368 bases of DNA, from the NCBI RefSeq assembly GCF_003334335.1, contig NZ_QOWQ01000201.1; one strand, written 5' to 3'. The stretch comes from Escherichia coli (GTDB lineage: Bacteria; Pseudomonadota; Gammaproteobacteria; Enterobacterales; Enterobacteriaceae). Below are positions 1 through 368 of this stretch, in pieces. Made by a program: the position numbers and the translations under genes. Positions within the stretch are counted from its first letter, which is position 1, and the number at the start of each line of letters is the position of its first letter. The notes beneath the pieces were generated by a model that saw only the letters and a list, made by a program, of their open reading frames with translations, was not told where the DNA came from and did not search any database.

Positions 1-368
1 GCCCTGGGGATAACGGCAAAACAGATTGCTGATGCCACAGGAAAGAAAAACATGGTGTCGCACTGGTTCAGTGCCAGCCAGTGGCAGCTACCGGACGAAA
101 GCGATTATCTGAAATTACAGGCGCTGTTTGCCCGGGTGGCAGAAGAGAAGCATCAGCGCGGAGAACTGGAAAAGCCACATCACCAACTGGTCAGCACATA
201 CAGTGAACTGAACCGGCAGTATACGGAACTGCAGAGTGAATATAAGCATCTGCGGCGGTATTTTGGTGTGACGGTGCAGGTGCCGTACACCGATGTGTGG
301 ACGCATAAACCGGTGCAGTACTATCCCGGGAAACATCCGTGCGAAAAACCGGCAGAAATGCTGCAGCA
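1..368 (+). CDS. DNA methyltransferase (N6-adenine/N4-cytosine, N6_N4_Mtase-like), internal fragment truncated at both window edges
   Basis: Seen in sequence: frame +1 (codons starting at nt 1) translates without any stop across all 122 codons: ALGITAKQIADATGKKNMVSHWFSASQWQLPDESDYLKLQALFARVAEEKHQRGELEKPHHQLVSTYSELNRQYTELQSEYKHLRRYFGVTVQVPYTDVWTHKPVQYYPGKHPCEKPAEMLQ. Codon use is strongly biased (9 of 11 Leu codons are CTG; CCG, GCG and CAG are frequent), as expected for a real enterobacterial-type gene. Established knowledge: 'H-P-x-x-K-P-x-x-L' (here HPCEKPAEML, nt 334..363) is the conserved block that precedes the FxGSG AdoMet-binding motif I in beta-class amino-methyltransferases. Inference: the DPPY catalytic motif lies upstream and motif I downstream of the window. 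The missing ORF-track entry for this frame fits an ORF that has no stop inside the window. Confidence 0.8.

Follow-up and report, generated by a model that had tools for sequence, protein, structure and literature searches.

The 368-nt stretch of Escherichia coli DNA analyzed in this work (the window) encodes the middle part of a beta-class N6-adenine DNA methyltransferase (MTase) of the M.EcoGII type, including the core of a helix-turn-helix (HTH) domain related to those of XRE-family proteins. Judging from sequence comparisons and structure models, this four-helix domain very probably constitutes the target recognition domain (TRD) of the enzyme, in which it would clamp the nucleic acid backbone without reading the bases. 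The particular features of the window and of the upstream region are summarized in Table 1.

Identity of the gene and the methyltransferase core

Frame +1 is open through the entire window, whose sequence is 100% identical to a fragment of the E. coli JE86-ST05 chromosome located within the CDS of WP_137466585.1 (352 aa), annotated as 'DNA-methyltransferase'. Of 5426 complete E. coli genomes, 1908 contained related sequences, and relatives of the window, showing 80–95% identity, are also carried by Stx-converting phages. Nucleotide identity to the window is 94% in phage 1720a-02, whose enzyme has been named as a close homolog (PMC5778455). The whole protein shares 330 of 349 residues (95%) with full-length M.EcoGII (sequence from Table S1 of PMC11551740), and on the strength of this identity the gene is a natural allele of the M.EcoGII family; M.EcoGI and M.EcoGII are themselves identical at 333 of 349 positions. 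The approximately 19 substitutions and gaps that separate the protein from M.EcoGII, part of which are machine-reading (OCR) noise of the published table (PMC11551740), include S191/P191 (in helix 3), D203/N and A212/S. The two proteins also differ in length (352 aa here and 349 aa in M.EcoGII).

Pfam recognized a single domain, N6_N4_Mtase (PF01555; aa 29–340, E = 1e-42), and scanning of the middle region against NCBIfam and PHROG returned only methyltransferase families, plus weak coiled-coil/regulator noise. The catalytic DPPY motif (aa 35–38) precedes the HTH domain (aa 157–223), which is followed by the AdoMet-binding motif F310-x-G312-x-G314, encoded 3' of the window. This order, i.e., DPPY, TRD and FxGxG, is that of the beta-class enzymes, and it places the HTH in the target-recognition position, as the initial annotation had proposed. 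The Rossmann-type core is superimposable on structurally solved beta-class enzymes. Members of the class with solved structures include M.BceJIV (8urk), M.MboIIA (1g60), CcrM (6pbd), M.RsrI (1eg2), and M.PvuII (1boo). By sequence, solved beta-class enzymes match only over aa 8–142 and 281–343, and for the approximately 140 residues in between, the HTH peptide included, a sequence search found no solved relative.

Table 1. Features of the analyzed window (positions 1 to 368) and of the region upstream of the methyltransferase gene (positions in L001)
Feature	Position	Strand	Basis
Internal fragment (aa 172-294) of the 352-aa beta-class N6-adenine DNA methyltransferase, M.EcoGII type	1..368	+	ORF, CDS match, Pfam
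Helices 2 and 3 of the HTH domain with the turn between them and the conserved loop behind (peptide LGITAKQIADATGKKNMVSHWFSASQW, aa 173-199)	4..84	+	translation, AF2
HTH helix 2, AKQIADAT (aa 177-184), with conserved G174 and T/S176 ahead of it	16..39	+	AF2 helices
Turn (G185-K186) followed by helix 3, KNMVSHWF (aa 187/190-194), short and of recognition type	40..69	+	AF2
Conserved loop S-A-S-Q-W-Q-L-P-D (aa 195-203), joining helix 3 to helix 4	70..96	+	conservation
Long helix 4 (aa 204-223), closing the four-helix bundle of the HTH domain	97..156	+	AF2
Four degenerate heptads HHQLVST/YSELNRQ/YTELQSE/YKHLRRY (aa 231-258), charged helical linker to the catalytic domain	178..261	+	AF2 helix 238-255
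Catalytic-core re-entry, conserved R256-R257-x-F259 and T268-D269-V270-W271	253..300	+	conservation
H-P-C-E-K-P motif (aa 283-288), conserved beta-class motif ahead of FxGxG	334..351	+	conservation
pR'-like promoter at the end of the Q gene (TTGCAA-17-TATATT)	L001 4913-4941	+
Strong terminator-like hairpin CCCGCCACTGGCGGG with T-run	L001 4996-5016	+
66-aa ORF WP_000917749.1, phrog_331 (E=3e-37, function unknown)	L001 5140-5337	+
Second terminator-like hairpin just ahead of the methyltransferase gene	L001 5324-5348	+
Two hairpin-forming inverted repeats in the 125 nt preceding the methyltransferase start	L001 5365-5395; 5460-5478	+

Predicted structure of the helix-turn-helix domain

In AlphaFold2 (AF2) models, with pLDDT values of 93 for the full protein and 96 for the isolated domain, the peptide LGITAKQIADATGKKNMVSHWFSASQW forms helix 2, the turn and helix 3 of an autonomous domain of four helices (aa ~157–223). 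The domain has a four/five-helix lambda-repressor-like fold, and its Foldseek E-values were 0.5–1.7. The reading of this segment as an HTH, made originally from the letters of the sequence, was confirmed both by the AF2 helices and by HTH profile matches (HTH_3 and HTH_31, in the domain or its relatives), and the stretch was predicted to form an independent helical domain outside the Rossmann core. Helix 2 aligns to positions ~12–19 of the HTH_3 model, and the extent of helix 3 according to AF2 is 190–194 in the full model and 187–194 in the domain-only model. The sequence gives the domain a net charge of only about +1, and the linkers flanking it are rich in Lys and Arg.

Within its 27 residues, the peptide differs from M.EcoGII at one position, i.e., S191 in place of P191 (codon 191, window positions 55–57). 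Serine is also present at this position in the reconstructed ancestor Anc291 (sequence from PMC11551740). At the DNA level, Tandem Repeats Finder indicated two copies of an imperfect 10-nt unit, CAGTGCCAGC, within the FSASQWQ codons (window positions 69–88, score 33), which are most likely due to chance.

Homology to XRE-type domains

Pfam HTH_3 matched the full protein at aa 167–195 with a sub-threshold score (E = 0.061), and the isolated domain with E = 0.0029, covering only positions 2–32 of the 55-position model. When the domains of 58 relatives were scanned, five of them matched HTH_31 at E ≤ 0.001 (the best at 2.2e-6) and two matched HTH_3. Moreover, 12 divergent relatives carry, after helix 3, the canonical XRE signature W-E/x-x-G-x-x-x-P-S/T, and hhalign joined these 12 to the M.EcoGII-like domains with a probability of 98.5% (E = 1.6e-15). 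In the protein analyzed here, the loop of aa 195–203 corresponds to the 'W-E-x-G-x-x-x-P-S/T' region of XRE proteins. The profile matches in the relatives, together with the hhalign link, point to homology beyond a mere likeness of shape, and at the level of sequence comparison the domain is a homologue of XRE-type (lambda-repressor-like, Cro-C1) HTH domains.

The search of PDB sequences with a profile of the domain alignment yielded XRE proteins as weak matches (E of 0.04–0.6), suggestive although short of significance, and below spurious hits to designed helical-repeat proteins that top this search with scores inflated by their repeats. The matches to C-proteins of restriction-modification systems are explained by the XRE fold that these proteins share. 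Relative to canonical XRE proteins, the register of helix 3 is ambiguous, as the applied methods disagree on the residue equivalent to the canonical Trp: MAFFT and hhalign indicate W199, with a four-residue gap, while W193, with a slightly longer loop, is favored by Pfam and by the helix boundaries of the AF2 models.

Conservation of the domain

Conservation was counted over the 87 rows of alignment A1, built of representatives showing 31–67% identity. In the approach to helix 2, G174 is kept in 71 of 86 and T/S176 in 61 of 87 relatives, while the turn and helix 3 retain G185 (56/87), H192 (67/87) and F194 (59/87). The subsequent loop is marked by S197 (60/87), Q198 (63/87), W199 (65/87) and, above all, P202 (81/87), and helix 4 by Y207 (77/87) and L210 (54/87). 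Where the chain returns to the catalytic core, R257 (86/87), F259 (82/87) and W271 (85/87) are kept, and so are H283 (86/87), K287 (87/87) and P288 (86/87) of the H-P-C-E-K-P motif, which aligns to HPTQKP in M.BceJIV and M.RsrI.

Among 113 close relatives, the conservation of the domain (0.80) is similar to that of the core (0.81–0.86), with 0.65 for the flanking linkers. The domain is kept along with the core in all relatives. It is in effect the constant TRD of the family and not an occasional insert. The initial annotation had regarded the HTH as an extra insert of the kind found in some methylases; it belongs instead to the whole M.EcoGII/M.PflMI family, in which its conservation extends to members with as little as ~33% identity.

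In the turn and at the beginning of helix 3, residues 186–191 are hypervariable in the family as a whole, an indel hot spot lies at 187, and some family members carry insertions of up to ~8 residues in this segment. The segment of aa 185–191 (GKKNMVS, window positions 40–60) is 92% conserved among the 113 close relatives and 22% across the wider family. Such a clade-fixed and family-variable pattern is that expected of a subfamily-specific functional surface.

It should be added that one row of alignment A1, P0122 (349 aa, a representative of a 50% cluster), shows mainly A>V, R>C/W, P>L/F, H>Y, and T>I/M replacements relative to the query. C>T in the query codons accounts for 95 of its 116 differences, and 308 of 349 residues of P0122 agree with the query gene translated after full C>T conversion, versus 233 of 349 without conversion. 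From these counts, P0122 looks like a database artefact, its gene having been predicted from reads that were bisulfite-converted or had undergone deamination in another way, and it was excluded from alignment A2.

Heptad linker

The heptads of the second linker have an aromatic residue at position 1 and Leu at position 4, and they run up to the conserved RRPF re-entry. The number of in-phase heptad copies among the 87 relatives ranges from 0 to 6, which shows that copy number varies in evolution. Exact tandem 7-aa duplicates (e.g., REYEDLR in 4–5 copies) are present in 26 of the 87. Heptad linkers occur in relatives such as P0141, P0163, P0198, and P0200, and YEDLRRE-type tandem copies are frequent. 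No DNA-level tandem repeat behind the heptads was detected in the window.

It may be speculated, although we consider it rather unlikely, that the heptad helix acts as a length-adjustable arm or coiled coil setting the reach of the XRE-type domain to the active site of the other subunit; if true, such an arm could tune specificity or the preference for DNA versus RNA. As another possibility, the S191/P191 difference in helix 3 might alter substrate preference between natural alleles.

Prophage setting and predicted expression

The gene is localized in an E. coli lambdoid prophage, between the gene of antiterminator Q and a tRNA cluster (tRNA-Ile/Arg/Arg), in the neighborhood of genes of Q, RusA, holin, and lysozyme, with the lysis genes placed beyond the tRNAs. 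No restriction endonuclease gene was found near the MTase gene upon inspection of this prophage neighborhood, and the enzyme is a phage-borne orphan MTase, a type that the initial annotation had mentioned. The 66-aa WP_000917749.1 (…VGEIAQNTYLSRERCQLILTQLVMAGL…), encoded upstream, looks from its sequence like a small winged-helix protein.

The presence of Q, of a pR'-like promoter and of terminator-like hairpins upstream of the gene is a layout that fits control by Q-dependent antitermination, and, based on its position, the gene is probably a Q-dependent late gene. This placement agrees with the published silence of M.EcoGI and M.EcoGII in lysogens (PMC5778455). The inverted repeat at 5460–5478 stops 10 nt short of the ATG and, as a hairpin, might cover the ribosome-binding region.

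Proposed role of the domain in the enzyme

The most probable course of events, as suggested by the models and the gene position, can be described as follows. The four-helix domain (aa ~157–223), spliced between the DPPY half and the FxGxG half of the Rossmann fold, is tethered by two linkers, the second being the charged heptad-repeat helix. It would hold DNA (and RNA) mainly by backbone contacts, leaving the bases unread, and the catalytic domain would flip and methylate any adenine, probably within a homodimer like other beta-class enzymes. The enzyme would presumably be synthesized from the Q-dependent late transcript, in lytic growth alone, and would methylate phage DNA broadly and thereby blunt host restriction.

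Published observations bearing on this proposal are as follows. M.EcoGII and M.EcoGI methylate adenine in any context (PMC5778455), M.EcoGII is a dimer according to gel filtration (PMC5778455; PMC11551740), and AF2-multimer models show positive charge on a surface extending over the TRD and the linker (PMC11551740). Furthermore, substitution E179Q in HTH helix 2 of the engineered SUPREM reduces RNA methylation 3.4-fold, this sole mutational datum having been obtained for an engineered ancestor with an RNA substrate (PMC11551740). The non-specificity of the allele analyzed here is extrapolated from its 95% identity to M.EcoGII, from which it differs in helix 3 by S191 versus P191, and is to be taken as predicted.

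Conferring of sequence specificity was one of the roles that the initial annotation had considered possible for the HTH, and such a role, with this allele being a site-specific MTase, has some arguments on its side. The site-specific M.PflMI has the same domain architecture (PMC11551740), the region in which XRE proteins read bases (the turn and the beginning of helix 3) is fixed in the clade but hypervariable and rich in indels in the family, and S191 replaces P191 of M.EcoGII. However, the divergence between M.EcoGI and M.EcoGII is like that between M.EcoGII and the protein analyzed here, and both named enzymes, the latter of them 95% identical to it, modify adenines anywhere (PMC5778455). 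In addition, the HTH peptide shows just the single difference to M.EcoGII, and Anc291, which has the same S191, is, like SUPREM, largely non-site-specific on RNA (PMC11551740). A sequence-reading TRD is thus very unlikely, and the original suggestion is at variance with the experiments on the closest relatives.

It is just as unlikely that the HTH fold serves mainly as a structural or dimerisation scaffold, the binding of nucleic acid being left to the charged linkers and the catalytic domain. The near-neutral net charge of the domain, the abundance of Lys and Arg in the linkers and the largely hydrophobic or aromatic character of the best-kept residues (H192, F194, W199, P202, and Y207), which could be packing residues, would agree with such a role. 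On the other hand, the published dimer interface comprises aa 97–110 and 116–140, outside the HTH domain, the domain is located at the face of the model that bears positive charge, and E179Q affects activity (PMC11551740). A further argument against a mere scaffold is that T/S, a phosphate-contacting residue at the helix 2 N-cap, is conserved.

Autoregulation, i.e., binding of the enzyme to an operator near its own promoter and repression of transcription, found no support. Some C5-methyltransferases with N-terminal HTH regions (M.SsoII type) do repress their own transcription, but the domain considered here is internal to the catalytic fold, at the TRD position, and every relative keeps it together with the core. 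A search for operators, which is a weak test, covered the 190 nt upstream of the gene and revealed no convincing operator-like palindrome; only two ordinary hairpins (L001 5317–5348 and 5365–5395), with no obvious operator pair, were seen, besides the inverted repeat at 5460–5478. Moreover, Q, the pR'-like promoter and the terminator-like hairpins would already account for silence in the lysogen, and the autoregulatory role suggested earlier is very unlikely. Finally, a chance HTH pattern in the MTase core, which the weak single-sequence Pfam match in the full protein might have suggested, is refuted by the HTH profile matches and the structure models and can be practically dismissed.

Comparison with known systems

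An HTH-type TRD in M.EcoGII has been already known since 2024, when an AlphaFold-based study described the TRD as a four-helix bundle with an HTH resembling XRE regulators (PMC11551740). The present analysis re-derives this TRD independently for a natural allele and adds sequence-level evidence of domain homology to the XRE-family HTH, while the window itself yields no new biology. M.EcoGII is widely used in chromatin footprinting, MadID-type proximity labelling and RNA methylation engineering, and because of this wide use its XRE-type substrate-binding module matters for protein engineering. The module also bears on how an MTase can lose sequence specificity.

The XRE/Cro-C1 repressors are free-standing dimers, whereas the domain described here is inserted inside an enzyme fold. 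Compared with the HTH_3/HTH_31 domains of XRE proteins, helix 3 is short (5–8 residues) and the next loop is remodelled in the M.EcoGII clade. To our knowledge, no sequence-specific binding is known for the HTH domain of this clade.

In C5-methyltransferases of the M.SsoII and M.Ecl18kI type, an N-terminal add-on HTH binds the promoter. As in the protein analyzed here, an HTH is joined to a DNA methyltransferase, but those are C5 enzymes with the HTH at the N-terminus, whereas the present one is an N6 beta-class enzyme with an internal HTH (aa 177–194) that constitutes its putative TRD.

Within the beta class, M.PflMI (CCANNNNNTGG) shares the overall predicted structure, including the HTH-type TRD, as reported previously (PMC11551740); by its published description, it is ~27% identical to M.EcoGII, site-specific and without the charged linker (PMC11551740). 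The closest likeness is to M.EcoGII and M.EcoGI from prophages of E. coli O104:H4 C227-11, which show the same motif order, HTH-containing TRD, heptad linker and prophage setting.
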